A stretch of DNA of 18,256 nucleotides from a virus. The stretch lies in the UHGV virus genome UHGV-0117054; one strand, written 5' to 3'. The position numbers were made by a program, and so were the translations under genes. The notes under the pieces were generated by a model, which saw nothing but the letters and a program-made list of their open reading frames with translations, was not told the DNA's origin and did not search any database. Below, piece by piece: positions 1,852 through 17,058 of the stretch (position 1 is its first letter; each line of letters begins with the position of its first letter).

Positions 1852-2526
1852 ATGAATGCACTAATCGACATTGGCGAGTTTTCTGTCAGTGATGGCCGTG
1901 AAGGAGGAAAAGACTACCTGCTGAGACCATCACTGATGGCTATGACGCGGATCGGCAATCCAGCGGAGATTGTTCAGGCGTATGCCACGGTGCACGGTAG
2001 CGATGTTGCTGCCGTCATCCAGTTCTGTACTGATACGCTTGGCCGCTTTCCGGACTGGCTGTCGCCATCCATGAATCGCATCGCAGAACGGCTGCTATCG
2101 CTGAGTATGCACATCATGCAGGCCTGCTGTGATGACGATCTTACCCCGATGATAGGTGAGTGGAAAGGGTGGAGCCGGTACGTTGTTTACCGGCCCGGGC
2201 AGATGCCGAGAAACGACATCATCGTGCTGGCTCAGCACCTTATGCAGCATGGCGTCGTAGGTAAGGCCAGTGTGCGCCGCCTGCAGCGGCATGAGTCAGG
2301 TGAAACGACGAACGAGTTTAAGGTCTTCGACTACATCAGCGCGGCGCGTAGCCACTTCGGCATGAGCCGGGAAGAGGCTGCGGCGCTGACAATGACTGAG
2401 TTTCAGCTGATGCTGGCGCAGAAATACCCCGATCAGAAGGGCTTCACCCGCGAAGAGTACGACGCGGTTGCTGATGACTACCTGAAAAAGCAGGCGGCAC
2501 GCCGGGCGCAGGCGAATCAGAAGTAA
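1852..2526 (+). CDS. Putative tail assembly chaperone (assigned by position); alternative GTG start at 1807
   Basis: ORF follows the major tail gene and precedes the tape measure region. ATG at 1852 has gggaagga upstream; GTG at 1807 has no good SD. No canonical G/GT frameshift partner was found. Confidence 0.35.
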   Translation: MNALIDIGEFSVSDGREGGKDYLLRPSLMAMTRIGNPAEIVQAYATVHGSDVAAVIQFCTDTLGRFPDWLSPSMNRIAERLLSLSMHIMQACCDDDLTPMIGEWKGWSRYVVYRPGQMPRNDIIVLAQHLMQHGVVGKASVRRLQRHESGETTNEFKVFDYISAARSHFGMSREEAAALTMTEFQLMLAQKYPDQKGFTREEYDAVADDYLKKQAARRAQANQK

Positions 2527-2635
2527 TCGGCATTCACTCCGGGCACCTCTTGAGATCAATAAATCAGCAGTTGCCGTTGCGCCTGTGCTATTCCTGGGTA
2601 GGATGTTTCCATTTTTACCAATCGGGAATAGGGAT

Positions 2636-2974
2636 ATGAAGAAGTTAGCTTTGGCATTGCTTGCAGTGGTTTCTTTGGGGGCTTCTGCGTCAAATACGTA
2701 CACAAAAGAACAACTCAACTCAATGGCTGCATCTGGGAGTTACCCAGAACAGGAATCGCCAGTTACTAAGAGCGTTGAGTCAGTGTCATTTGAGAGGTGT
2801 AAGCAAGACACCTACGGCGTTTATAACCAAGTAGCTGGCAATTATCCGGCACAAGAAGTTGTCAACACCGGCATCCTTTACATTGTTAAAATTTGGACCA
2901 ATGACGGCGTGATCATGGTTTCATGTTCAGGGCCTGATGGTAAAAAACTTGTCACTCAATCCTCCTACAAGTAA
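2636..2974 (+). CDS. Secreted/periplasmic hypothetical protein with cleavable signal peptide (moron)
   Basis: N-terminus MKKLALALLAVVSLGASA|SN is a classic Sec signal peptide with an AxA site. The mature part has two Cys. The segment is AT-rich compared with flanking tail genes. Confidence 0.55.
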   Translation: MKKLALALLAVVSLGASASNTYTKEQLNSMAASGSYPEQESPVTKSVESVSFERCKQDTYGVYNQVAGNYPAQEVVNTGILYIVKIWTNDGVIMVSCSGPDGKKLVTQSSYK

Positions 2975-2984
2975 GGGAATATCT

Positions 2985-3317
2985 ATGAGCGAACAAGAGC
3001 AACTGCAGAGTTTGAGTGAAGAGGTGGCCAGAGCATACCTGCGCCACCTGGAAGCAACCACTGGCGGAAATACGGTTACTTACGATGGTGTGACAAGATC
3101 AATTACTCTCGAAGAACTAGTTTTTGGCCTAATAGGGGTCGCACATTTCAATGCTAAAAACCACCCAAACGACGAGATACTAAAAGACCCATATAAACAT
3201 CTCTCGCACATGATTGATATTTTATCAAAGCCATATGTGATAACTGAGTTCGGTCTAAAAGTTATTGAACATATGAATGAAATTTCCATTCATAAACAGC
3301 GTGGGGTGTTGATGTGA
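2985..3317 (+). CDS. Hypothetical cytoplasmic protein (moron)
   Basis: 110-aa ORF with ATG start and SD aaggga upstream. Low GC, no signal peptide. Its 3' end overlaps the next gene (GTG/ATGTGA junction). Confidence 0.5.
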   Translation: MSEQEQLQSLSEEVARAYLRHLEATTGGNTVTYDGVTRSITLEELVFGLIGVAHFNAKNHPNDEILKDPYKHLSHMIDILSKPYVITEFGLKVIEHMNEISIHKQRGVLM

Positions 3318-3691
3318 AAACGGGTGCAATGTGCTTATCTTTGCTGTTTTTAATTTCTGGTTGCGATGATGGCGGAAAAGGAAGTGTAGCTAACGGGGCC
3401 GATACAGCTATAACAATGTTCAAATCATCTATGAGTGAGGGTGATCATCCACCCTTCGAATATCAGCGCCTCGTATTCAAACCAGATCAGCAAAACTCAA
3501 GCAAGGTAATAAGTGGATGGGTTTGCGGAGATGGAAGCATGAAGCGTGATGATAAGACCTTTAACTTTAAAGTTAGAGGTCATGTTATTAAGTCAGAAGA
3601 TATTTCATATGTTGGTGACATAGCCGCACTGCTTTCTGATACTGAAATGGTCAAATACGACATTCTTTACAATAAGAATTGCAAAGAATAA
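3314..3691 (+). CDS. Lipoprotein with predicted inner-membrane retention (moron); start GTG 3314 or ATG 3329
   Basis: N-terminus MKTGAMCLSLLFLISGC carries a lipobox (ISGC). The residue after the lipid-modified Cys is Asp (CDD), the +2 Asp Lol-avoidance signal known in E. coli. Low GC. Confidence 0.6.
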   Translation: MKTGAMCLSLLFLISGCDDGGKGSVANGADTAITMFKSSMSEGDHPPFEYQRLVFKPDQQNSSKVISGWVCGDGSMKRDDKTFNFKVRGHVIKSEDISYVGDIAALLSDTEMVKYDILYNKNCKE

Positions 3692-3711
3692 GCAGGAAGA
3701 AATCTTAACAA

Positions 3712-3737
3712 ACCTCGCCTCGGCGGGGTTTTTTATT
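3712..3737 (+). terminator. Intrinsic terminator ending the moron cluster, just upstream of the tape measure gene
   Basis: cctcgcc-tc-ggcgggg hairpin followed by ttttttatt. The tape measure SD (ggag) follows immediately. Confidence 0.55.
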
Positions 3738-3751
3738 GCCCGGAGATAGCA

Positions 3752-6688
3752 ATGGCAAAAGAACAAAATGCTGGCAGCGTCGTCTATACGGTAAGCGCTG
3801 AGATCGAGCCCCTACTGATTGCTGGTAAGCAGGCCATTGATGTTCTGGATAAGCTGGATGCAGCCGCTCAACAATCTGGCAAGGGAATGGATAGCCTGGA
3901 CCAGAGTACATCCCATACTGGATCGGCGTTCAACGAACTGGCTGGATATGCCAATTCAATGGATAACCAACTGCGTAAACTGAACACCAATGTAAGCGGC
4001 ATAGCTCGCGCCATGGAAGAAGCTCGCAGCGGTACCGGGGGAGCAAACAGCGAATTCAATCGCGCTGAATCTATCATTGAGGCATTGGGTAACCAGTTGG
4101 CAATACTGGACGAGGCGCAGGAGAATGGTGCTCGCAGCGCTGCAGTGCTGGCAGCCCAGTTGCGCGCTGGCTCTAAAGCCACCGACGAAGAGAAGCAGAA
4201 GATCGGCGAGCTTACTGGTCGCTTATATGACATGAAGACTGGCGTTGAAAATGGCGCAAAAGGCACTGGCAGCTGGAAGTCCAGCATGCAGCAGGCTGGT
4301 TACCAGGTTCAGGACTTCATTATTCAGGTGCAGGGAGGTCAATCTGCGCTGGTGGCTTTCGCTCAGCAGGGCTCTCAGCTTGCTGGCGCATTCGGTCCGG
4401 GCGGTGCGATTGTCGGTTCTATCATTGCGCTGAGCTCGGTTATCGCTGGTGTGCTGATTACTTCGCTCAATGGCGGAAAGAACGCCATGGATGCTCTTAA
4501 GAGCGCTGCTGAAACCATGGATAAGGTTATTACCATTTCACAAAATGGTGTGGCCGCCCTCTCTGATAAATATGCCGCTCTGGCACAGACAAATATTGCT
4601 GTGGCAACCTTGATGAAAAAGCAGGCCGAGCTGGAATTGCAGGCTGCTCTATCAAACGTCTCAAAAGAAGTACAAAAGGCATCGAGTGACTTCATTAGCT
4701 TTGGTGATTCATTGATGTCTTCGCTGGGCGGTGGATATGCCAGCGTAAAATTATTTAATGACTATTTGTCCACGCTAAATATAACCACTAACGATTTCAG
4801 TGAGGCATGGAAGCAGGCAGCTGCCAGCGGGCAGGATGGTCAGTCAACGATGAACTCTATGGTGGCAACTGTTGCGGCCCTGTCTACCAAGTTCGATATT
4901 AGCGATCAGAAAGCTTTTGAGTTTGCTAAGCAACTTTCTGACATAGCGAAAACACCAACTGATGAAAAACTTAAGGCATTGGTTGTGACTCTGCAGGATG
5001 TCGGGAATGGGCAATCTTCTGGCGCGGCTAAGGCCCGGGAATATGCCAAAAGTCTCTTAACCATCATGGAGACAAGCACAGACGCTACTTCACGCCTTAA
5101 GGCTCTGAAAGAGATGACTGATAGCCTGACTTCCAGCCAGGATAAGGCGCTAAAAATCGCTCAGCAGGAGCTGTTTATTGCGCGGCAAACTGGTGAGGCT
5201 CAAATGAAAGCCAAGGCTTGGCGAGATGCCGAAACGCAGGGGCTGAAAGAGGGGACGGAAGCATTCAGGAAATACTACAACGTCAAGCTGGCAACCTATA
5301 AACAGGATGCGGCTAACGCTAACAGCAAGAAGGGAGCCAGTAGCGCTGCGTCAGAAGCTAAGAAGTTAGCCAATCAGCAAGAAACGGTGGCGCAAAAGCT
5401 TGAGAATTTGAGGCAGCAATCAGAGCTGACAGCCAAGTCGACGCAGCAACTCAGCCGCGAGCAGGCCATCCTCACTGCCCAGCAATCCTTGGGTGCAGCA
5501 GCAACTCAAAAAGACCTCGATCTTGCCGGACAGTATGCCGCTGCAAAATGGGATACGGCCAATGCGCTCAAAGCGCAGGCCGCCGCCGAGAAGCTCCTGC
5601 CGGAAGCGCGCGAAAACGCCAGCTATAAGCAGGATGTTGAGGATCTGAATACTGCCCTGACCGCGAAGAAAATCAGCCAGGAACAATACAACGAGACCGC
5701 AGAGCGCCTGGAGGCAACGCACCAGAACAACCTCGCCAAAATCCGTGCGCAGCAGGCAGTAACACCGCAGCAGGAGGCCGCTGGCGGCGTCGACCCGGTG
5801 CAGCAGCTGGCGAATGAGAACGCGCGTAAGCTGGCGCTCATTCAGCAGTACGAGCAGCAGGGCGTATTAACCCACCAGAATGCTTTGGCGCTGCGAGCTG
5901 CTGCTGATACAGAGTACGAGCAGGCGCGCATCGCTGCACAGTGGGAGATTTACCGTAATCAGAGCACTGGCAATGAACTGCTGGCCACCTCGCTGGAAGG
6001 CCTGCAGAGCGGGGCAACCAATGCCCTCACTGGATTAATCAACGGCACCCAGAGCCTGCAGGAGGCAATGGCTAACGTTGGCTCGACCATCATCAACAGC
6101 GTGATCGGCAGCCTCGTAGAAATGGGCATGCAGTGGGTTAAAAATCAGGTGATGGGGCAGGCAGCGGCGGCAGCCTCTCTGGCATCTACCATGGCGCAGG
6201 CAACTGCTGCAGCATCAGCTTGGGCGCCGGCAGCAATGAGTGCGTCGATCGCCACGTACGGCAGCGCCGCTGCTGTTGGTCAATCGGCTTATGCAGCCTC
6301 TCTTCTGTCAGCCAAGGGGTTAGCTGTCGCCGGTGCCCGCGAACACGGCGGGCCGGTCTCGGCCAGCTCCATGTACCGTGTGGGCGAAGGTGGCAAACCT
6401 GAGATTTTCAAAGCCAGCAATGGCAGCCAGTACATGATCCCCGGCGATAACGGTCGCGTCATCAGTAACCGCGATATTGGCGGTAGTGGCGGGGGGGCGT
6501 TCAATTACAGCCCGGTCATTCAGGTTAACGGGGATCCGACTGAGCAGCAGTTGGCCATGCTCGAGGCCGCGGTCAAGCGCGGCGCGCAGCAGGGCTATGC
6601 CATGGCCGTCAGCGACGTCGCCAGCGGCAAAGGAAAACTCTCCAACGCTCTGACCAACAACTTCAACACCAGTCAACGCCTCACATAA
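3752..6688 (+). CDS. Tail tape measure protein
   Basis: 978 aa, Ala/Gln/Glu-rich with long predicted coiled-coil stretches. It has an internal hydrophobic Gly-rich segment (…AFAQQGSQLAGAFGPGGAIVGSIIALSSVIAGVLITSL…). The C-terminal region (…YRVGEGGKPEIF…) resembles the lambda gpH C-terminus as I recall it. Confidence 0.9.
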   Translation: MAKEQNAGSVVYTVSAEIEPLLIAGKQAIDVLDKLDAAAQQSGKGMDSLDQSTSHTGSAFNELAGYANSMDNQLRKLNTNVSGIARAMEEARSGTGGANSEFNRAESIIEALGNQLAILDEAQENGARSAAVLAAQLRAGSKATDEEKQKIGELTGRLYDMKTGVENGAKGTGSWKSSMQQAGYQVQDFIIQVQGGQSALVAFAQQGSQLAGAFGPGGAIVGSIIALSSVIAGVLITSLNGGKNAMDALKSAAETMDKVITISQNGVAALSDKYAALAQTNIAVATLMKKQAELELQAALSNVSKEVQKASSDFISFGDSLMSSLGGGYASVKLFNDYLSTLNITTNDFSEAWKQAAASGQDGQSTMNSMVATVAALSTKFDISDQKAFEFAKQLSDIAKTPTDEKLKALVVTLQDVGNGQSSGAAKAREYAKSLLTIMETSTDATSRLKALKEMTDSLTSSQDKALKIAQQELFIARQTGEAQMKAKAWRDAETQGLKEGTEAFRKYYNVKLATYKQDAANANSKKGASSAASEAKKLANQQETVAQKLENLRQQSELTAKSTQQLSREQAILTAQQSLGAAATQKDLDLAGQYAAAKWDTANALKAQAAAEKLLPEARENASYKQDVEDLNTALTAKKISQEQYNETAERLEATHQNNLAKIRAQQAVTPQQEAAGGVDPVQQLANENARKLALIQQYEQQGVLTHQNALALRAAADTEYEQARIAAQWEIYRNQSTGNELLATSLEGLQSGATNALTGLINGTQSLQEAMANVGSTIINSVIGSLVEMGMQWVKNQVMGQAAAAASLASTMAQATAAASAWAPAAMSASIATYGSAAAVGQSAYAASLLSAKGLAVAGAREHGGPVSASSMYRVGEGGKPEIFKASNGSQYMIPGDNGRVISNRDIGGSGGGAFNYSPVIQVNGDPTEQQLAMLEAAVKRGAQQGYAMAVSDVASGKGKLSNALTNNFNTSQRLT

Positions 6689-6697
6689 GGAGTTCCC

Positions 6698-7168
6698 ATG
6701 GGGATCAGCAGCACCATTGATTTCCCGCACCAGTACCTGCCAATGCCTCAGCGTTCCGGGCATGGATTCACTCCGGTAAGCCCTCTCCAGCGTTCCACTA
6801 TGACATCCGGCCGCACGCGGCAGCGCCGCAAATACACCTCGGTTCCAACTGAGGCGGGTGTTTCATGGGTATTTAATGATGCCCAAGCGCAGCTGTTTGA
6901 GGTGTGGTTCAGAGACGTGATAACGGACGGCGCAGCGTGGTTCAACATGCGCATGCGCACGCCAATGGGCGTCGGTGACTACGTCTGCCGGTTCAAGGAT
7001 ATCTACGACGGGCCGGTGCTGTTCGGGTTAGGGTTCTGGAAATTCACGGCAACACTGGAGCTTTGGGAGCGTCCAATCCTGCCAGCTGGCTGGGGTAATT
7101 TCCCTGAGTTCATCGTGGGGCAGAGCATTATCGATTACGCGCTCAACAAGGAGTGGCCTGAAGCATGA
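6698..7168 (+). CDS. Minor tail protein (distal tail / gpM-like position)
   Basis: 156-aa ORF directly after the tape measure gene, with SD aaggag 6 nt upstream of ATG. Its stop overlaps the next gene's start. Assigned by synteny. Confidence 0.55.
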   Translation: MGISSTIDFPHQYLPMPQRSGHGFTPVSPLQRSTMTSGRTRQRRKYTSVPTEAGVSWVFNDAQAQLFEVWFRDVITDGAAWFNMRMRTPMGVGDYVCRFKDIYDGPVLFGLGFWKFTATLELWERPILPAGWGNFPEFIVGQSIIDYALNKEWPEA

Positions 7169-7653
7169 CCAGTCCAACCCTGAACAGGCTTTACGCCAGT
7201 GGCGGCAGCGAGGCGCTACTGAATACGCTGCAGATTACCGTCGGTGGGCAGGATTACTGGCTGGTCGAGAACTTCGAAGATATCACCGCTGTTACAGAGG
7301 CGGGGGCGACAGTGACATTCCAGGCGGCTGCCATGGCCGTCGCGCTGCCAGCCAGGAACAAAGACGGCACGCAGGATCTGCAGTTCGCCATCAGCAACAT
7401 TGACGGCATCGTTTCTACTGCGATACGCAACGCCCTGGCTAACCTGAACAACGGTACTCTGGTAATGCGGCAGTACATATCGACCGACCTTGGCTACCCG
7501 GCGGCACCACCTATCGTTCTGCAGATTAAGGACGGGTACTGGAAGGCGACCGAGGTGCAAATTACTGCCGGATTCCTGAATATCCTGAAAACCGCATGGC
7601 CGCGCTATCGTTACACGCTTCCTGTCTTCCCGGGGCTGCGTTATTTAACTTGA
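7165..7653 (+). CDS. Minor tail protein (gpL-like position)
   Basis: 162-aa ORF, ATG overlapping the upstream stop (translational coupling). Backbone GC. Assigned by synteny. Confidence 0.55.
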   Translation: MTSPTLNRLYASGGSEALLNTLQITVGGQDYWLVENFEDITAVTEAGATVTFQAAAMAVALPARNKDGTQDLQFAISNIDGIVSTAIRNALANLNNGTLVMRQYISTDLGYPAAPPIVLQIKDGYWKATEVQITAGFLNILKTAWPRYRYTLPVFPGLRYLT

Positions 7654-7708
7654 TGCTTGACCCTCCCAGAGTTCAATATTTCTCCTCACCTTAAGTGAAG
7701 GAGGATTT

Positions 7709-8263
7709 ATGCTCGGCTCTCTCAGGGAAATTGTCTTCTCCGTTGCAAAGCATGAAGTTGGACACTGGCTCGCATGGCATTGCTATGGCGGATCTTCGTC
7801 TGGCATCGAAGTAAAAATTCTATCGATTAATGGGCGACACACAGGTGCTTTTATCCCTGATATGGAGTGGGAAGTATCTACTCTGGATGAAGCCTGTAAA
7901 TATGTAAAAGCCAGGCTGCTGTGCCTACACGCTGGTATTTATGCGGAATCTTTCCTCGGTGATATTTATGACGCAGAGCGCATAAGCCGTGAGTTTAACC
8001 ACCTCGGCGCAGCAGCATCTGACTTTCACCGTAGTATTGAGCTTGCCTGGGCTTACTGCAACCTGACAGGCCGCTCAGATCAATACAGCGCGGTTTGTAG
8101 CGAAATAGACCAGGAGGCAGCCAGTCTGGTGGCGGATAATTTTGAATTTATTAAGCACGCAGCGAAGGCGATATCAGACATGGCGGCTTACGAAGGTCAG
8201 CTTATTAAGCTTCCTGACTATGAACTGCAATCCATGTATGAAAAATTTAAACGTCAGAGGTGA
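7709..8263 (+). CDS. Standalone FtsH-like (M41 family) zinc metallopeptidase domain protein, no AAA+ or membrane module
   Basis: HEVGH (HExxH) at residues 15-19. Downstream blocks line up with the E. coli FtsH protease domain as I recall it: EVKILSINGRHTGAF vs KVTIIPRGRALGVTF; LHAGIYAESFLG vs LYGGRLAEEIIYG; LGAAASDF vs STGASNDI; IDQEAASLVADNFEFIKHAAKAISDMAAYEGQL vs [34 protein letters not shown]. Strong SD (gaaggagga), lower GC than flanking tail genes. Confidence 0.65.
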   Translation: MLGSLREIVFSVAKHEVGHWLAWHCYGGSSSGIEVKILSINGRHTGAFIPDMEWEVSTLDEACKYVKARLLCLHAGIYAESFLGDIYDAERISREFNHLGAAASDFHRSIELAWAYCNLTGRSDQYSAVCSEIDQEAASLVADNFEFIKHAAKAISDMAAYEGQLIKLPDYELQSMYEKFKRQR

Positions 8264-8266
8264 TGA

Positions 8267-8437
8267 ATGGAAAAATTAACGCTTTCGGTAAAAGTTGATA
8301 CCACATCATTAGATGAGGCTATCGAGAAGGTCAGGACCTTAAAAAAAGAATTAAGGGAGCTTGGCCTGCCTTACTTCACCGGCAATCCTCTGGCTGGATA
8401 CCAGCCACAACAAGAAGAAAAAGCCACCAACCAATAA
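8267..8437 (+). CDS. Small hypothetical protein (56 aa) co-located with the M41 peptidase gene
   Basis: ATG 4 nt after the peptidase stop, SD-like gagg upstream. Translation MEKLTLSVKVDTTSLDEAIEKVRTLKKELRELGLPYFTGNPLAGYQPQQEEKATNQ. It ends at the terminator hairpin. Not in the supplied ORF track because it is under 60 aa. Confidence 0.3.
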   Translation: MEKLTLSVKVDTTSLDEAIEKVRTLKKELRELGLPYFTGNPLAGYQPQQEEKATNQ

Positions 8438-8460
8438 GCCGCTTGAAGCGGCTTTTTTTA
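8436..8460 (+). terminator. Intrinsic terminator closing the peptidase moron
   Basis: aagccgc-ttgaa-gcggctt hairpin followed by a run of seven T. It sits between the small ORF stop and the NlpC/P60 gene start. Confidence 0.5.
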
Positions 8461-8470
8461 TGAGGCGCCC

Positions 8471-8851
8471 ATGTTCAATCCCGATAAATACCGTTCTGTC
8501 GAGTGGCAGAAGGGCGGACGCGCTTACCCCGCGCTGGACTGCTTTGGCATCGTCAATGAAATCAGGCGTGACCTTGGCCTGGCTCCGTGGCCTGATTTTG
8601 CCGGGGTTACGAAGGATGATAACGGCCTCGACCGGGAGGCGCGCGGACTGATGGCTGGCCTGACGCGATGTGAGCCTGCCCCGGGCGCGGGTATCGCCTG
8701 TTATTCAGGCTCTGTGGTGACGCACGTTGCCATCGTTGTTGAGATTGATGGCCAGCTTCGCGCCGCGGAGTGCAATCCCCGCACTAACGTAACCTTCCTG
8801 CCGCTGGCGCGGTTTGCGCGCCGCTTTGTTCGCGTGGAGTATTACCAGTGA
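8471..8851 (+). CDS. NlpC/P60-family tail-associated peptidase (lambda gpK C-terminal-domain-like)
   Basis: 126 aa. ALDCFGIV supplies a candidate catalytic Cys and VTHVAIVV a candidate His, spaced as in NlpC/P60 papain-like folds. It sits immediately upstream of the J-like gene with a GTGA stop/start overlap. Confidence 0.65.
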   Translation: MFNPDKYRSVEWQKGGRAYPALDCFGIVNEIRRDLGLAPWPDFAGVTKDDNGLDREARGLMAGLTRCEPAPGAGIACYSGSVVTHVAIVVEIDGQLRAAECNPRTNVTFLPLARFARRFVRVEYYQ

Positions 8852-11800
8852 CGATCCGAATCTATCCCTCACGCCTGCCCGGCGAGCCGCTGGAAAAGCA
8901 CGAACACGAAACGATGACCCTCAGCGCCTGGTTTGCGCGGAACGTGAAGGACTGGGCACCGGATCAGCAGCATCCGGTTGCGGTTGAAATCGACTGTGTC
9001 CCCGTCCCGGCGTCAGAGTGGCCACTGTGCGTTATCAAACGCGAAACCGACGTCAGGATGTATCCGGTGCCGTACGGTACCGGCGCAGAAATCGCGATCT
9101 GGGTTGCCGTCAGCGTAGCCGTTGCCTCTGCTGCGTACAGCATCTACATGATGAGCACAATGTCTCAGGCTGGCGGCGGCGGTGCCCAGGCGGCCAGCGG
9201 CGACCAGATTGACCTCAACCCGGCAAAAGCGAACGCGGCGAAGCTGGGAGACCCCATCCGTGAAATCTTTGGAAAATATCGCGTCTGGCCTGATTACGTC
9301 GTGCAGCCGGTAAGCCGGTTCGTGAACGAGACCAGCATGGAAACCAGCATGTTCCTGTGCGTGGGTGTCGGCGACATGGTGATTAACCAGTCAGATATCC
9401 GGATCGGTAATACGCCGATCTCCGCGTTTGGTACCGACGTGCGTTACACCCTCTACCCGCCTGGCGCCACGGTATCCGGCGATACGCGCACTGAAAACTG
9501 GTTCAATTCACCAGAGGTCGGGAATACCGGTTCCGGTACTGCCGGGCTGGACCTTGGCTCAAGCGGACCGGAGACGGTCAGCATTATCGCTGATGCGCTG
9601 GTCGTGTCAGGGAACTCCATCACGCTGGTTGACGTATCGTCGTCTGGCGATGAGGAGATCCCGCCGTCGTGGACCGTCGGAACGGTGATCACCGTACTGG
9701 CCCCAAATTCGTATACGGTCGTGTCGTCCGGCGGTTACAGCATGATTTATGGCGGGATAGAGGAACTTGCACCTTATGTAGGCATGCCGGTGACGCTGAA
9801 CTATAACGGCAATGACTACGATCTGGTGATTGCCAGCTATGCCCCGGGCGTTCCGGCAGTGCCGGGGGTGGGTGGGAGTGCCGCAACCATAACTGCCAGC
9901 GCCGCGCCGACCACCTACGACTTTAGCACCGCGCCTGTGACGTTCAGCATCAGCTGGCAGGGCACGACTTACCCGGTATCACTGGTCACCAACTACGTCA
10001 CCATGTCAGGCCTGGTTTCCTCGATCACCTCCCAGCTCGCAGGCTCTGGCCTGGTAGCGCGCGATAACAGTGGGCGGCTTGAAATCGGCGAGGCCAGTAG
10101 CCCATATGCTGGCGGGTCCATCACCAACAGCCCGTTACCCGTTGCTGTTTTCGGTGATGCTCCGGTTAATACGGCAGGCGTGAAATCAACGGGCGGCACG
10201 ACGGAGGTCAGGGCGCACATTACCCTGGCTTACAACAGCGCCACCGGTACGCCATTCACAGGGCTGCCAGAGGGAATTCAGCGCTTTTCTCTGGGGCTTG
10301 CCGGCAATCAGTTCCGGATCACCGATGTGGACAGCCAGACCATCACCGTAGAGCGGTTGACTGTCACCACAGGTCCTGGCGGCGAGACGATCACGACGCC
10401 GGATCCATCGTGGCCTGGCTTCACCGAGCGTACGCTGCTGGATGCGACCGTGACGGGTGTCAGTGACGATTACGAATGGGTTGGCCCGTTCCTGGCCTGC
10501 CCGGACGGCGAAACGCTGGACGCATTCGAGGTGAACATCAACTTCCAGAGCGGCCTGGTGCGTTATACCGATAAAGGTAACAAGCGCTCAATGCCCGTTC
10601 GCCTGGTGATCCAGTATCGCAAAGTTGGAACCACCGCCTGGCAGCAGCAGTCCCCGTTCTATTCCCGCAGTACTGAAAACCAGATCGGCTTTACACATCG
10701 CTACAGCGTGTCGCCTGGTCAGTATGAGATCCGGATGCGCAGAACCGAACCGGTTAAGGGCGGCAGCACGCGTGACCAGGTTTTCTGGCAGGCGCTGCGC
10801 TCCCGGCTGAGCAAGCGACCCACTAAGTACGACGGTGTCACTACCATGGCGCTGACCGTGCGCACTGGTAACCGCCTGGCAGCCATGTCCGATCGCCGTA
10901 TAAGCGTCACGCCAACCCGGCTTTACAGCGGCGGCAGAACTGCACGGAGCATCAGCGGCGCGCTTTACCATGTACTCGAGTCGCTTGGGTTCACGACCAG
11001 CCAGATTGACACAGCGGCGATTGATGCTCTGGAGCAAACATACTGGACGCCCCGCGGTGAGAAATTCGACTGGGCGAGCGGCGAGAGCAAGTCCGCACTC
11101 GAGGTGCTGCAGAAAATCACTAACGCAGGGATGGGGTATTTCCTGCTGTCTGATGGACTGGCGTCTGCCGGCAGGGAAGGCATTAAACCCTGGGTAGGCA
11201 TGATTACCCCGCAGGAAACCACCGAGGAGCTGCAGACTGCCTTTAAAGCCCCATCGCAGGACGATTACGACGGTGTGGACGTGACCTATATCAACGGCAC
11301 CACCTGGGCAGAAGAAACCGTGCAGTGTCGCCTGTCTGGCAACCCAACGCCGTTGAAAATCGAGAGCTACACGCTGGATGGTGTTCTGAATGAAGACCGC
11401 GCCTACCGCATCGGCATGCGCCGGTTGCTGGGCTACCAGTTGCAGCGCCTGCAGCACACCACCTCGACCGAGATGGATGCGCTCTGTTATGAGTTCATGG
11501 ATCGTATTGTGCTGGCAGATGATATCCCCGGCAGCGAGACGCTGAGTTGCCTGATTACCGATATGACGTATGACAGCAGCAAAATCACCATGACGCTTAG
11601 TGAGGCCCCGGACTGGTCGTTCCAAAGCCCGCGCGTGATTATCCGCCATCAGGATGGCAGGGCATCAGCCATGCTGGTACCGACACGCATTGACGACTTC
11701 ACCATCTCGGTGCCGTACAGCGCCGTGTTGGAGCCGGAATTGTGGGCTATGAACGACGCGTACATTGAACCACCGCGCCTGCTGTTCTGCTCATCTGTTC

Positions 11801-11931
11801 GGGTGCCGTATGACGCTCTGGTCGGCGAAATATCACCGGGTAACGATGGGATAAGCCAGGTTACGGCTATTCAGTATCACCCAGGAAAGTACGCCTACGA
11901 CGACGCCACATACCCCGGCGACGCCGCTTAA
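8848..11931 (+). CDS. Host specificity / central tail fiber protein (lambda gpJ-like) with an N-terminal gpI-like region
   Basis: 1027 aa with GTG start. The central region (…SPGQYEIRMRRTEPVKGGSTRDQVFWQALRSRL…) resembles the NIRMRRMTP block of lambda J as I recall it. The first ~170 aa have a small domain, then a hydrophobic helix (AEIAIWVAVSVAVASAAYSIYMM) and a Gly-rich linker, like lambda gpI. Confidence 0.85.
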   Translation: MTIRIYPSRLPGEPLEKHEHETMTLSAWFARNVKDWAPDQQHPVAVEIDCVPVPASEWPLCVIKRETDVRMYPVPYGTGAEIAIWVAVSVAVASAAYSIYMMSTMSQAGGGGAQAASGDQIDLNPAKANAAKLGDPIREIFGKYRVWPDYVVQPVSRFVNETSMETSMFLCVGVGDMVINQSDIRIGNTPISAFGTDVRYTLYPPGATVSGDTRTENWFNSPEVGNTGSGTAGLDLGSSGPETVSIIADALVVSGNSITLVDVSSSGDEEIPPSWTVGTVITVLAPNSYTVVSSGGYSMIYGGIEELAPYVGMPVTLNYNGNDYDLVIASYAPGVPAVPGVGGSAATITASAAPTTYDFSTAPVTFSISWQGTTYPVSLVTNYVTMSGLVSSITSQLAGSGLVARDNSGRLEIGEASSPYAGGSITNSPLPVAVFGDAPVNTAGVKSTGGTTEVRAHITLAYNSATGTPFTGLPEGIQRFSLGLAGNQFRITDVDSQTITVERLTVTTGPGGETITTPDPSWPGFTERTLLDATVTGVSDDYEWVGPFLACPDGETLDAFEVNINFQSGLVRYTDKGNKRSMPVRLVIQYRKVGTTAWQQQSPFYSRSTENQIGFTHRYSVSPGQYEIRMRRTEPVKGGSTRDQVFWQALRSRLSKRPTKYDGVTTMALTVRTGNRLAAMSDRRISVTPTRLYSGGRTARSISGALYHVLESLGFTTSQIDTAAIDALEQTYWTPRGEKFDWASGESKSALEVLQKITNAGMGYFLLSDGLASAGREGIKPWVGMITPQETTEELQTAFKAPSQDDYDGVDVTYINGTTWAEETVQCRLSGNPTPLKIESYTLDGVLNEDRAYRIGMRRLLGYQLQRLQHTTSTEMDALCYEFMDRIVLADDIPGSETLSCLITDMTYDSSKITMTLSEAPDWSFQSPRVIIRHQDGRASAMLVPTRIDDFTISVPYSAVLEPELWAMNDAYIEPPRLLFCSSVRVPYDALVGEISPGNDGISQVTAIQYHPGKYAYDDATYPGDAA

Positions 11932-14432: not shown

Positions 14433-14539
14433 GGCTCAGGAGGAAGTGGAACGAGATCGAACCAGCGCAGGAAAAGCTGGTAGCTGATTCATATGTTGTG
14501 GGTGAAAAATACGGAATCAGATGCAAGGAGGCTTTAGTG

Positions 14540-14632
14540 ATGGAGGCTACTCTTCATCGCCGTAATCATCAAAGGTTACTGTCGCAGTTTGAGGCTCTGG
14601 CTGAACGAGTGGGAAATCTAGAAGCAAAGTAG
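14540..14632 (+). CDS. Possible 30-aa small ORF with strong RBS (may be a remnant)
   Basis: aaggagg sits 8 nt upstream of the ATG. Translation MEATLHRRNHQRLLSQFEALAERVGNLEAK. No other support. Confidence 0.2.
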   Translation: MEATLHRRNHQRLLSQFEALAERVGNLEAK

Positions 14633-14796
14633 CTTTCTGATGCACTAATCGTCAATCCTACCCAAACAGAGAGGGTGCTTTCGCTACGTCATATTCGCAT
14701 CTTTTGGTGGCGCAAGAGCACCCTCAATCCTGCATTTGTAAAATTCACTACTGATATCAAAATTAGTGGTTAGACCCCAAAACCACACACAAATCA

Positions 14797-14825
14797 TTGA
14801 CCCGTCCCAGCAAGTATTGCACAAT
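14797..14825 (+). promoter_or_regulatory. Candidate sigma70 promoter for the AsnB-like cargo gene
   Basis: TTGACC, a 17-nt spacer, then CACAAT, about 70 nt upstream of the ATG at 14898, in an AT-rich intergenic region. Confidence 0.3.
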
Positions 14826-14897
14826 CTTGGTTGTTTACTCTGTTAACCAAATAGTTATCAACTTTAAATATTGCCAATTATCTTGCGCGGGAATTAA

Positions 14898-16727
14898 ATG
14901 ATAAACTTTATTGTTTTAAATGGAAAAAGCGAGTCTGTTAAGAAATTATACGAGACAGCGCAGCAGGCCCTAAAAAGGAACTTAACATTTAAGCCAGTAG
15001 AGGTGGCTAATAAAATATCTGGTAGCGGAGCTTGGGCATATACAGCATGTGGCAATGCGGAAGGCGAAATATCAAAAAGAATAACATCTAAGCAAAGCGG
15101 CGTATGCCTGATAAATGGCCCTGTTTTAAGGATGTGTGATAGCTATGATGTCTCAGATGCCGCACTTGATGCCTCCACCAAAAACGATGCGGAATACATG
15201 TTTGACAATATTTCCGGGTCTTACAACTTCGTTTCAATAACCTCTAAGAATGGCCTCCTTGCTTTCGGCGATTTCTCAGGCACCTGTCCTATTTATTACA
15301 CAATAATTGATGGCGTAACTTGCGTAAGTAACCGGGCATCTGCATTGCATGAACTGCGCGGGAATAGTAAATATAATATTTCTTCTTTGAGCTGGTTAAT
15401 TGGGCATGCCAATATATTTGGCAATGAGTCACCTTTTGAATGCGTGTATTCAATTACAGCTGGTAGCTATTTAAAGTCACCACTTGGTTCAACAACAGTA
15501 AACATCAATAAATTTAAGAATCAGATATGGCCTTCAAATGACGATGCTCAGTATCTGAACGACCTCTCAGGTGATGATTGGGATTTGATAGTAGATGAGT
15601 TGGTGAAAAACTTTAAGGCTGCAAGTGAAAACATTCCCGGCGAACTCCGTTTATCACTCACCGGTGGTAAGGACTCTCGCCTTGTCCTTGCGCTGGCATT
15701 GGGTGCAGGATTCAAAGACAGGATCACCACATTTACGAACGGCCCGGAAGGCAGCCCAGAGATAAGCTGTGCACAGAACATCGCCAACAAAATCGGCGTT
15801 AAGCACGTCGCTAACGTTAAGGCTCCACAAGTTAAAGCTCAGGATTTTGCTAATTCATGGGAAAAACTTAACTGGCATTCCTACAGAATGGAAAGTTATA
15901 TTTGCCCATGGGATGGAGCAACAGCTGAACGCACCATCAAAAATATAACGTCCGATATGACTGGCTTTGGCGGCGAGCTATATCGCGGACCCGGCGGACA
16001 CGCCAAGCAGTTTAAAAACCTGTCCTTTATGGACAATAAAGATGCAATTCTTTCTAAGTTCATAAACTACCATCAGAAGATGGATCCATTAAACATTCTC
16101 TCCAGTTTGTATAAAAACGCTCAAATAGGTTGGTTCTACGGCTGGCTTGAGGAGAATATTAAATCTGTAAGGTTTGATGTTTTACCTGAGAAGTTCTTCG
16201 TAGAAAACCGTCTTTCCAATTGGAACGGCCCTCTTGCTCAGAACGTCACAGGCAGAATTAAACTGATGCCACTTCTCTCTCCTAAAGTTGCGCGTTTGGT
16301 ATTCAAGCTCAGCCCGGAGGCCAGGAACAAAGAATTGTTCCACTACAGCGTCATGGCAAAGCTGGCTCCTGAATTAGTTTCTCTGCCATTTTTGAATGCG
16401 ACATGGGATAAATCATTGCAGGGTAGATTTGGCCTTGATATCGCAGATGCTCCTTATGATAGCGGGGTTAAATTCACGCCAAGGTCTGTGCAAGCATGGC
16501 AGGCTCAATTTGTCGAAGGTCAGCGAGAAGAAATCGTGCACTTGCTTGAAAGAGCCGCCGAATATACAAACATCAGAGAGATATTTGACGTCGATAAATT
16601 ATGCGAGTACGTCCGGGAAAAGGAAGGGATGAACACCATAGAAATCAAAACTATCCTCTCCTCAATTGCTGTTGCCATTACCTTGCTGAATGATCAGGAA
16701 AGCGTAGAGGACCTTGGCCAGGTGTAA
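14898..16727 (+). CDS. Asparagine synthetase (AsnB) family amidoligase-like protein; N-terminal domain lacks the Cys nucleophile
   Basis: 609 aa. PP-loop SLTGGKDS at residues ~254-260 (AsnB has SGGLDS near 234-239). TGFGGELYRG matches the AsnB GEGxDExFGGY block and GRIKLMPLLSP the E-x-R-x-PFLD block. FGDFSGTCPIYY matches the RDxxGxKPLYY motif of the N-terminal domain. It starts MINF…, not MC…. GC is about 38-40%. Confidence 0.75.
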   Translation: MINFIVLNGKSESVKKLYETAQQALKRNLTFKPVEVANKISGSGAWAYTACGNAEGEISKRITSKQSGVCLINGPVLRMCDSYDVSDAALDASTKNDAEYMFDNISGSYNFVSITSKNGLLAFGDFSGTCPIYYTIIDGVTCVSNRASALHELRGNSKYNISSLSWLIGHANIFGNESPFECVYSITAGSYLKSPLGSTTVNINKFKNQIWPSNDDAQYLNDLSGDDWDLIVDELVKNFKAASENIPGELRLSLTGGKDSRLVLALALGAGFKDRITTFTNGPEGSPEISCAQNIANKIGVKHVANVKAPQVKAQDFANSWEKLNWHSYRMESYICPWDGATAERTIKNITSDMTGFGGELYRGPGGHAKQFKNLSFMDNKDAILSKFINYHQKMDPLNILSSLYKNAQIGWFYGWLEENIKSVRFDVLPEKFFVENRLSNWNGPLAQNVTGRIKLMPLLSPKVARLVFKLSPEARNKELFHYSVMAKLAPELVSLPFLNATWDKSLQGRFGLDIADAPYDSGVKFTPRSVQAWQAQFVEGQREEIVHLLERAAEYTNIREIFDVDKLCEYVREKEGMNTIEIKTILSSIAVAITLLNDQESVEDLGQV

Positions 16728-16761
16728 CGCCAGCCGGGATTATTGATAGGTATCGCCTCAT

Positions 16762-16819
16762 TGATCTGCACCTCCTTTAAAACTACTGTATATAAAAACA
16801 GTAAAAGGAGTGCAGATCA
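16762..16819. repeat. Inverted repeat bracketing the SOS box and the start of the downstream ORF
   Basis: tgatctgcac at 16762-16771 and its reverse complement gtgcagatca at 16810-16819, extended by tcc/gga with a one-base bulge. The arms flank the LexA box, and the right arm overlaps the GTG at 16810. Confidence 0.4.
16784..16803. promoter_or_regulatory. LexA operator (SOS box) in an AT-rich promoter region
   Basis: TACTGTATATAAAAACAGTA is a perfect CTGT-N8-ACAG palindrome with an AT-only spacer. From memory it matches the strong E. coli umuDC operator. It lies directly upstream of the 16810 and 17058 ORFs. Confidence 0.7.
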
Positions 16820-17058
16820 TACCCCGCCAATCAGACATTCACAGCGCATTTGTCGCTGCAGTACAGCAAAACCCAAAGGGTTATCAGTGCCTTCATACGA
16901 ACGACTTCATCCGTGAGTTGCGCGCGAGAAACTGGCATTTCAGCCAGGTCGACGCCAACGAGTGGATCCAGCGCTATCAAGAGTTCTTTGTCGACAAGAC
17001 GCCTGACCACAGTGAAAACCGTCTCTGGATGCTACGTAACATGGGGAGGGTTCTGTAA
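16810..17058 (+). CDS. Hypothetical 82-aa protein, first ORF downstream of the SOS box (start uncertain)
   Basis: GTG start with the SD too close (aaaaggag immediately before it). Its stop overlaps the ATG of the UmuD'-like gene (TAATG). No recognisable motifs. Confidence 0.3.
   Translation: MQIIPRQSDIHSAFVAAVQQNPKGYQCLHTNDFIRELRARNWHFSQVDANEWIQRYQEFFVDKTPDHSENRLWMLRNMGRVL

Follow-up and report, generated by a model that had tools for sequence, protein, structure and literature searches.

To our knowledge, M41 proteases have been described as being obligately partnered with an AAA+ unfoldase, and the question raised by the present locus is what a protease domain of this kind does on its own in the tail operon of a phage. 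The stretch of DNA analysed (the window) is the 18,256-nucleotide virus genome UHGV-0117054, which represents the late (tail) end of a temperate prophage of the siphovirus type. On its left, genes for tail completion, major tail and DUF6246 proteins are followed by the tape-measure gene (3752-6688) and a gene for a 156-aa protein. On its right, the TipJ gene (8848-11931) directly follows a CHAP/NlpC-P60-like gene and precedes a β-helix tail spike gene, a 609-aa ORF and an integrase gene on the minus strand. The features between these two parts are as follows.

7165..7653, plus strand: DUF1833 minor tail protein gene, the left flank (Pfam DUF1833, 2.3e-34; PHROG 396)
7647..8468, plus strand: inserted cassette (moron) of 822 bp, delimited by alignment of loci with and without the insert and by a dip in GC
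7680..7705, plus strand: hairpin in the ORF A leader, in which CUCCUC is paired with the Shine-Dalgarno (SD) sequence (RNA fold)
7709..8263, plus strand: ORF A, a predicted zinc peptidase of 184 aa with an M41 fold and no ATPase
7751..7765, plus strand: HEVGH codons of ORF A (H15, E16 and H19), the predicted two zinc ligands and catalytic Glu, invariant in 63 diverged relatives and aligned to HEAGH of FtsH
8021..8023, plus strand: D105 codon of ORF A, the predicted third zinc ligand, invariant in the family and aligned to the Asp of the FtsH TGASND block
8267..8437, plus strand: ORF B, a 56-aa soluble partner protein (PHROG 17957, 5.1e-7; pN/pS; pairing with ORF A homologues)
8436..8461, plus strand: intrinsic-terminator-like hairpin of 8 pairs (5 G-C) with its stem at 8436-8454, then TTTTTTT (scan and fold)
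8471..8851, plus strand: CHAP/NlpC-P60-like minor tail gene in the gpK position, the right flank (CHAP 3.7e-4, below the cut-off; PHROG 329 and 469)

A sequence-only reading of this DNA had recognised both ORFs and the HEVGH motif within a cassette spanning 7654-8460, and had described the cassette as having its own strong SD sequence, a lower GC content and a dedicated terminator. All of this is essentially right. Alignment with the E. coli E3 prophage, which has 14 bp in place of the insert, puts the insertion boundaries at about 7647 and 8468, and the last two codons of the DUF1833 gene are changed by the insertion. The SD sequence of ORF A (AAGGAGG, 7698-7704) is followed 4 nt later by the ATG. 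ORF B starts 3 nt past the ORF A stop codon, with its own SD sequence (GAGGTGA) lying within the 3' end of ORF A. The GC content is 0.42-0.50 across 7600-8500, as opposed to 0.56-0.63 (about 0.60) on either side, and the terminator-like site ends 9 nt ahead of the CHAP/NlpC-P60-like gene. The stem of the leader hairpin is retained in relatives, Raoultella having CAG/UUG in place of CAC/GUG; the stability of the hairpin against shuffled sequences is not significant (z-score only -0.8), so that translational control at the SD sequence may be considered, as a weak suggestion. Scanning the window for a plus-strand sigma-70-like promoter upstream of the cassette returned none. TTGACC at 7657-7662 was rejected as a cassette promoter, having no usable -10 element and not being conserved in the ECONIH5 prophage.

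We found nine matching prophages in a megablast search of complete E. coli genomes with window positions 6698-9200. Two of them match the right-hand part only. Among the seven that match both flanks, ECONIH5 alone carries the cassette, which is absent or swapped for a different small ORF in the other six. The E3, FDAARGOS_1250, MB20 and 1008S19 prophages are 88-92% identical to the window in both flanks and about 810 bp shorter, without the cassette; in LR-28 and GN25, a different 60-aa ORF occupies the slot between the DUF1833 and CHAP genes. An insert missing from related prophages with such similar flanks is a moron and not a core tail gene, as the sequence-only reading had supposed for this position between the minor tail and NlpC/P60 genes. 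Since the same junction is filled by an unrelated ORF in LR-28 and GN25, it is a recurrent insertion hot spot. DNA searches of phage genomes with the cassette sequence gave no match. In the LR-28 locus (L002, 3966-4148), the unrelated 60-aa ORF overlaps a 5'-extended CHAP gene, and likewise in GN25. RefSeq records of E. coli label the CHAP/NlpC-P60-like tail gene a 'nitrite transporter' (L001, 3966-4346; L003, 4418-4798), which looks like a propagated mis-annotation.

Morons are recognised by absence in close relatives, deviating base composition, an own terminator, and an own promoter with expression from the repressed prophage (Hendrix; PMC3594210). The present cassette shows optional presence, deviating GC and a terminator, the last as a consensus match only. 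The prototype of a tail-operon moron is HK97 gp15, a small exclusion protein of the inner membrane that has a promoter of its own (PMC3594210). The cassette shares with HK97 gp15 the optional presence in a tail operon close to the tape-measure gene, a deviating GC content and a terminator. The two differ in that gp15 is a membrane exclusion protein, whereas the cassette appears to encode a soluble protease and a partner, with no promoter found.

Copies of the cassette from ECONIH5 and from metagenomes or other genomes were compared with the window. The pN/pS ratios of 0.07-0.13 (ORF A) and 0.06-0.10 (ORF B) indicate purifying selection on both, which are therefore real genes. Neither protein has a hydrophobic segment, and both are thus expected to be cytoplasmic.

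The identity of ORF A is not visible from the single sequence. Against Pfam, its best match reaches only E 0.27, with no PF01434 match at E<=1, and searches of NCBIfam and, by phmmer, of the PDB returned nothing at E<=1 to 10. The protein falls into PHROG 36675 (3.4e-19), a group of unknown function. A word-indexed search gave just seven close homologues, all in Enterobacteriaceae; with a profile of these close homologues only, the PDB search found no match and hhalign was insignificant. Because single-sequence and shallow-profile searches were silent, a deep family alignment was needed. An exhaustive HMMER search yielded 74 representative relatives, nearly all of them standalone proteins of 175-260 aa, and 63 of these with 17-41% identity to the window protein make up the deep alignment. 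A 1204-aa repetitive protein (P0069) was dropped as a spurious family match. Only H15, E16, H19, G76 and D105 are invariant among the 63 aligned sequences.

The resulting family profile matches E. coli FtsH with a probability of 91% (E 8.9e-7) over FtsH residues 409-579, the entire protease domain, pairing HEVGH, LHAGIYAES and GAAASD with HEAGH, LYGGRLAEE and TGASND of FtsH, respectively. In the PDB, its top sequence match is the isolated FtsH protease domain (2di4). An AlphaFold model of ORF A built on the deep alignment has a pLDDT of 97 and a pTM of 0.92, and the top 50 Foldseek matches are all of the M41 type. Thus, the earlier claim of conserved FtsH blocks is borne out by family profiles and structure and is undetectable with the single sequence (Pfam, NCBIfam, PDB phmmer). 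In the same way, kinship with M41 is recovered by the family profile and the fold search, while direct membership of PF01434 fails: 15 of the 63 relatives touch this model at E<=0.01, the best at 2.2e-6, and those checked stay under the curated threshold; with a gathering cut-off of 29.9, the closest diverged relative reaches 16.6 bits. A few relatives already carry the name 'peptidase M41' in NCBI or UniRef. The whole 184 aa of ORF A align to FtsH 409-579, so that the transmembrane anchor and AAA+ module of FtsH proper are absent; together with the family profile, the fold and the lack of a hydrophobic segment, this agrees with the standalone peptidase domain proposed in the sequence-only reading. 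ORF A therefore has the M41 fold in a distant, compact form without a motor, with all catalytic residues in place, and it fails the formal Pfam model.

It could still be asked whether the cassette is a decaying or functionless hitch-hiker and HExxH a chance motif in a helical protein. That the window protein itself is unmatched in curated family libraries would fit such a case. This explanation is contradicted by the pN/pS ratios of 0.06-0.13 for both genes, by the existence of 74 representative relatives with H, E, H, G and D invariant in the 63 aligned, and by a high-confidence model with a specific fold match, and we regard it as extremely improbable.

The comparison with known proteases shows what is new in this locus. 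FtsH (M41, PF01434; 3kds, 2ce7, 2di4 and 4ww0) has 644 aa compared to 184 aa for ORF A. ORF A lacks the AAA+ ATPase, the transmembrane helices and the periplasmic domain, is missing about 30 residues within the protease domain itself, and does not reach the Pfam cut-off; ORF A resides on mobile elements, whereas FtsH is an essential housekeeping gene. An uncharacterised protein of Vibrio cholerae (PDB 5IQJ, 134 aa) is about 50 residues shorter than ORF A and has no known ORF B partner. Thus the structure of a relative is already deposited, with no function assigned. Our literature searches on standalone or phage M41 proteases and on 5IQJ returned nothing relevant, and no published characterisation was found. 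The fold and the chemistry are already known, and what is undescribed in the literature found is an architecture without a motor, together with a conserved small partner and a mobile, tail-operon-hopping lifestyle.

The kinship with FtsH raises the possibility that ORF A acts on FtsH itself. ORF A could, as proposed in the sequence-only reading, co-assemble with or titrate host FtsH, in this case its hexamers, and thereby shift the turnover of CII/CIII-type regulators, LpxC and RpoH, with ORF B playing a CIII-like part. ORF A does match the portion of FtsH that forms the hexameric protease ring, and ORF B has a CIII-like look (about 55 aa, a central amphipathic-helix-like stretch read by eye, and a Pro/Gly-rich tail). 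λ CIII is a 54-aa inhibitor and substrate of FtsH; ORF B resembles it in size and general layout and stands beside an FtsH-type catalytic domain, which is an analogy only. In an hhalign comparison, ORF B and λ CIII show no similarity (probability 1.6%). Furthermore, the identity of ORF A to E. coli FtsH is only 22%, about 30 FtsH residues around 505-535 have no counterpart in ORF A, and the family extends to Vibrio, Rhizobiales, Aliidiomarina and Campylobacterota, hosts with differing FtsH proteins. The catalytic residues are strictly conserved, although titration does not need them. Because these residues would be dispensable and the FtsH proteins of the hosts are divergent, titration is disfavoured, and we judge interference with FtsH to be quite unlikely.

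We found that ORF A and ORF B travel together. Wherever the 184-aa gene fills the slot between the DUF1833 and CHAP genes (Escherichia, Klebsiella, Raoultella and Enterobacter), the 56-aa gene comes next. A prophage of Providencia sp. R33 has an ORF A homologue with 41% identity and then an overlapping 63-aa ORF B homologue, sited after the tape-measure gene and a cluster of other morons (HicAB, Arc and ORF6N). A Mu-like prophage of Serratia fonticola carries the pair in its myovirus tail module, as a 176-aa ORF A homologue (34%) and a 59-aa ORF B homologue flanked by the tape-measure gene and a DNA_circ_N (DNA-circulation) gene. The first 40 residues of ORF B are more conserved than ORF A in Serratia (68% and 34%, respectively). 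A terminator-like hairpin stands 3' of ORF B in all three slots as a consensus match, and the Serratia sequence differs. The recurrence of A, B and terminator in three slots indicates that the mobile unit consists of the SD sequence, the two ORFs and the terminator. The A+B pair is thus horizontally mobile in Enterobacterales, in three different tail-module slots. The suggestion that the small ORF could be a partner of the peptidase is strengthened, as the pair stays together down to 34-41% identity in ORF A. In none of the three slots was a sigma-70-like promoter found upstream of the pair, the sole Providencia candidate being no better than chance; the cassette genes may be expressed in the lysogen or may be made only late, together with the tail genes.

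The pairing is not universal. Distant ORF A relatives without ORF B include those of Klebsiella phages P18-100 and 2b LV-2017, which lie in tail modules at other positions, and ORF B is therefore not generally required. Conversely, a 90-aa paralogue of ORF B stands alone after the lysis genes of Klebsiella phages. The moron cluster in the tail module of the Providencia sp. R33 prophage (L022, 2245-5531) is made up of a DUF1902/HicA-type pair, two repressors of the Arc/Mnt type and an ORF6N protein. At the Klebsiella phage loci (L005, 5367-5708; L006, 6567-7241), the distant ORF A homologues are flanked by genes for small lipoprotein-like or signal-peptide proteins, also in tail modules, and these loci are probably multi-moron clusters. 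An Enterobacter copy of ORF B (L030, 3001-3192) is frameshifted after residue 33 and reads through the terminator region to give 63 aa; either the C-terminal tail of ORF B is dispensable or this copy is decaying.

The siting of the pair suggests a second alternative, a tail- or tape-measure-related protease that is made late and either processes a tail protein such as the tape measure or is itself packaged and ejected. The five placements observed in phages or prophages are all in tail modules, mostly beside the tape-measure gene, and no own promoter was detected. In addition, ORF B weakly matches the N-termini of some tape-measure proteins (phrog_36805, 0.0064; rV5-like phages, E ~4e-3 by tblastn), which we judged to be probable coiled-helix noise. 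ORF B shows no similarity to the tape measure of its own phage, tail modules with 88-92% identical flanks manage without the cassette, and family members occur where no tail exists (an integron-like array, a plasmid-like locus and prophage early regions). A tail-related role is therefore an unlikely explanation.

These wider family contexts are diverse, the more distant relatives being single genes in integron-like arrays, accessory parts of prophages and loci that resemble defence islands. In Vibrio diabolicus (CP063377.1; L011, 1-12591), a family gene lies within an array of single genes separated by ORFs of roughly 30 codons, with acetyltransferase, RraB, Imm40-like and glyoxalase genes as neighbours; read from its gene layout, the array looks like a chromosomal integron cassette array. 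An Aliidiomarina member is found in an accessory region. In early regions of Rhizobiales prophages, the family gene adjoins a DUF4238 gene and is a few kb from putAbiC. One family member is placed after a ParA gene in a plasmid-like locus, one distant relative is found next to a methylase/HATPase cluster with an XRE-type HTH gene immediately upstream, and relatives are also found in Campylobacterota. The family members examined (175-260 aa) have no AAA+ or membrane domain, and some have a soluble N-terminal extension. This pattern is the signature of self-sufficient accessory cargo on mobile elements. A metagenomic protein of 299 aa (P0091) has a tandem domain duplication with HExxH kept in the first copy only.

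A protease of this kind might also serve as a regulator, in the manner of ImmA/IrrE (M78, COG2856), through signal-triggered cleavage of a small regulator (ORF B, a repressor or an antitoxin) that switches the programme of the mobile element. ImmA/IrrE is likewise a mobile-element HExxH protease with a small adjacent partner, there a repressor and here the tightly coupled ORF B, and the distant relative directly downstream of the XRE-type HTH gene would suit such a role. The fold family is a different one, however: ORF A has no M78/ImmA signal by Pfam and no ImmA-type fold match, and ORF B has no DNA-binding signature, with no HTH or RHH match in Pfam. The cassette is also distant from the immunity region, and most relatives have no adjacent regulator. 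We consider this regulatory explanation improbable.

We prefer a role in conflict. ORF A encodes a soluble 184-residue protein, a homologue of the C-terminal protease domain of FtsH without AAA+ unfoldase or membrane anchor, which in the mechanism we propose is a zinc endopeptidase. ORF B encodes its translationally coupled, co-travelling 56-residue partner, and the hairpin terminator closes the unit. The cassette could then be a two-gene moron encoding an autonomous, ATP-independent endopeptidase and a small regulatory partner for use in phage-host or phage-phage conflict, a proposal that we hold tentatively, at a little under an even chance. Its parts differ in strength. ORF A is probably catalytically active and ATP-independent; having no unfoldase, it could cut only exposed or unstructured segments of a specific target. 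In our estimate, there is a chance just short of even that ORF A and ORF B are conflict cargo, for example a protease for Lit-like abortive infection or exclusion or for counter-defence, as opposed to a factor in virion assembly. ORF B may regulate ORF A as an inhibitor, adaptor or substrate, which is possible and clearly short of an even bet.

The conflict role is favoured because of the optional presence of the cassette and the mobile-element and conflict-type neighbourhoods of the family. The best functional analogy is Lit, a zinc metalloprotease encoded by the defective prophage e14, for which EF-Tu is the substrate and the Gol peptide of T4 the trigger. Lit is, like ORF A, a prophage-encoded, soluble and motor-less HExxH protease. 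The two have no kinship in sequence or family, as ORF A has no Peptidase_U49 (Lit) signal by Pfam, and abortive infection is thus an analogy only. Several points count against the conflict reading. Neither ORF matches a PADLOC-DB v2 defence model at E<=1, no promoter was found in the three slots, and the recurrent siting beside tape-measure genes could signal a tail-related role. The failure of the window protein in the Pfam M41 model and the distant relatives without ORF B point in the same direction.

In this family, the catalytic site has been kept and the motor dropped, and the genes have spread as one- or two-gene cargo on prophages, integrons and islands. Motor loss combined with such spread implies a different choice of substrates and an accessory, probably conflict-related role. 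In a bolder form, A+B would be a new mobile proteolytic module, in which a motor-free M41 protease is governed by a CIII-like mini-protein and shuttled by phages between tail operons, either defeating or providing immunity that acts on late or tail proteins, or reprogramming FtsH-dependent decisions such as lysis versus lysogeny. We think this doubtful; if true, the module would stand as the first functional FtsH-type protease without a motor. With 184 aa and 56 aa, the family is small and experimentally tractable, and the prophages with and without the cassette are natural isogenic controls. Once its target is defined, phage-host biology would gain a class of protease, and a moron that recurs in tail operons of clinical Enterobacterales would be explained.

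Two further low-GC regions were observed in the window. One block (0.41-0.47; 14500-17000) lies between the tail spike and integrase genes. It contains the 609-aa ORF (14898-16727), for which only weak matches were obtained, to PP-loop/Asn_synthase (E 3.9e-4) and to PHROG 16728, a group of unknown function (6.8e-8), and none in PADLOC. From its place at the prophage end, this ORF is a candidate cargo or defence gene. The other stretch (0.42-0.46; 2500-4000) is immediately 5' of the tape-measure gene and holds three small, overlapping ORFs (2585-2974, 2937-3317 and 3314-3691), one of which matches nothing while two match PHROGs of unknown function. These ORFs may encode chaperones or be further morons.
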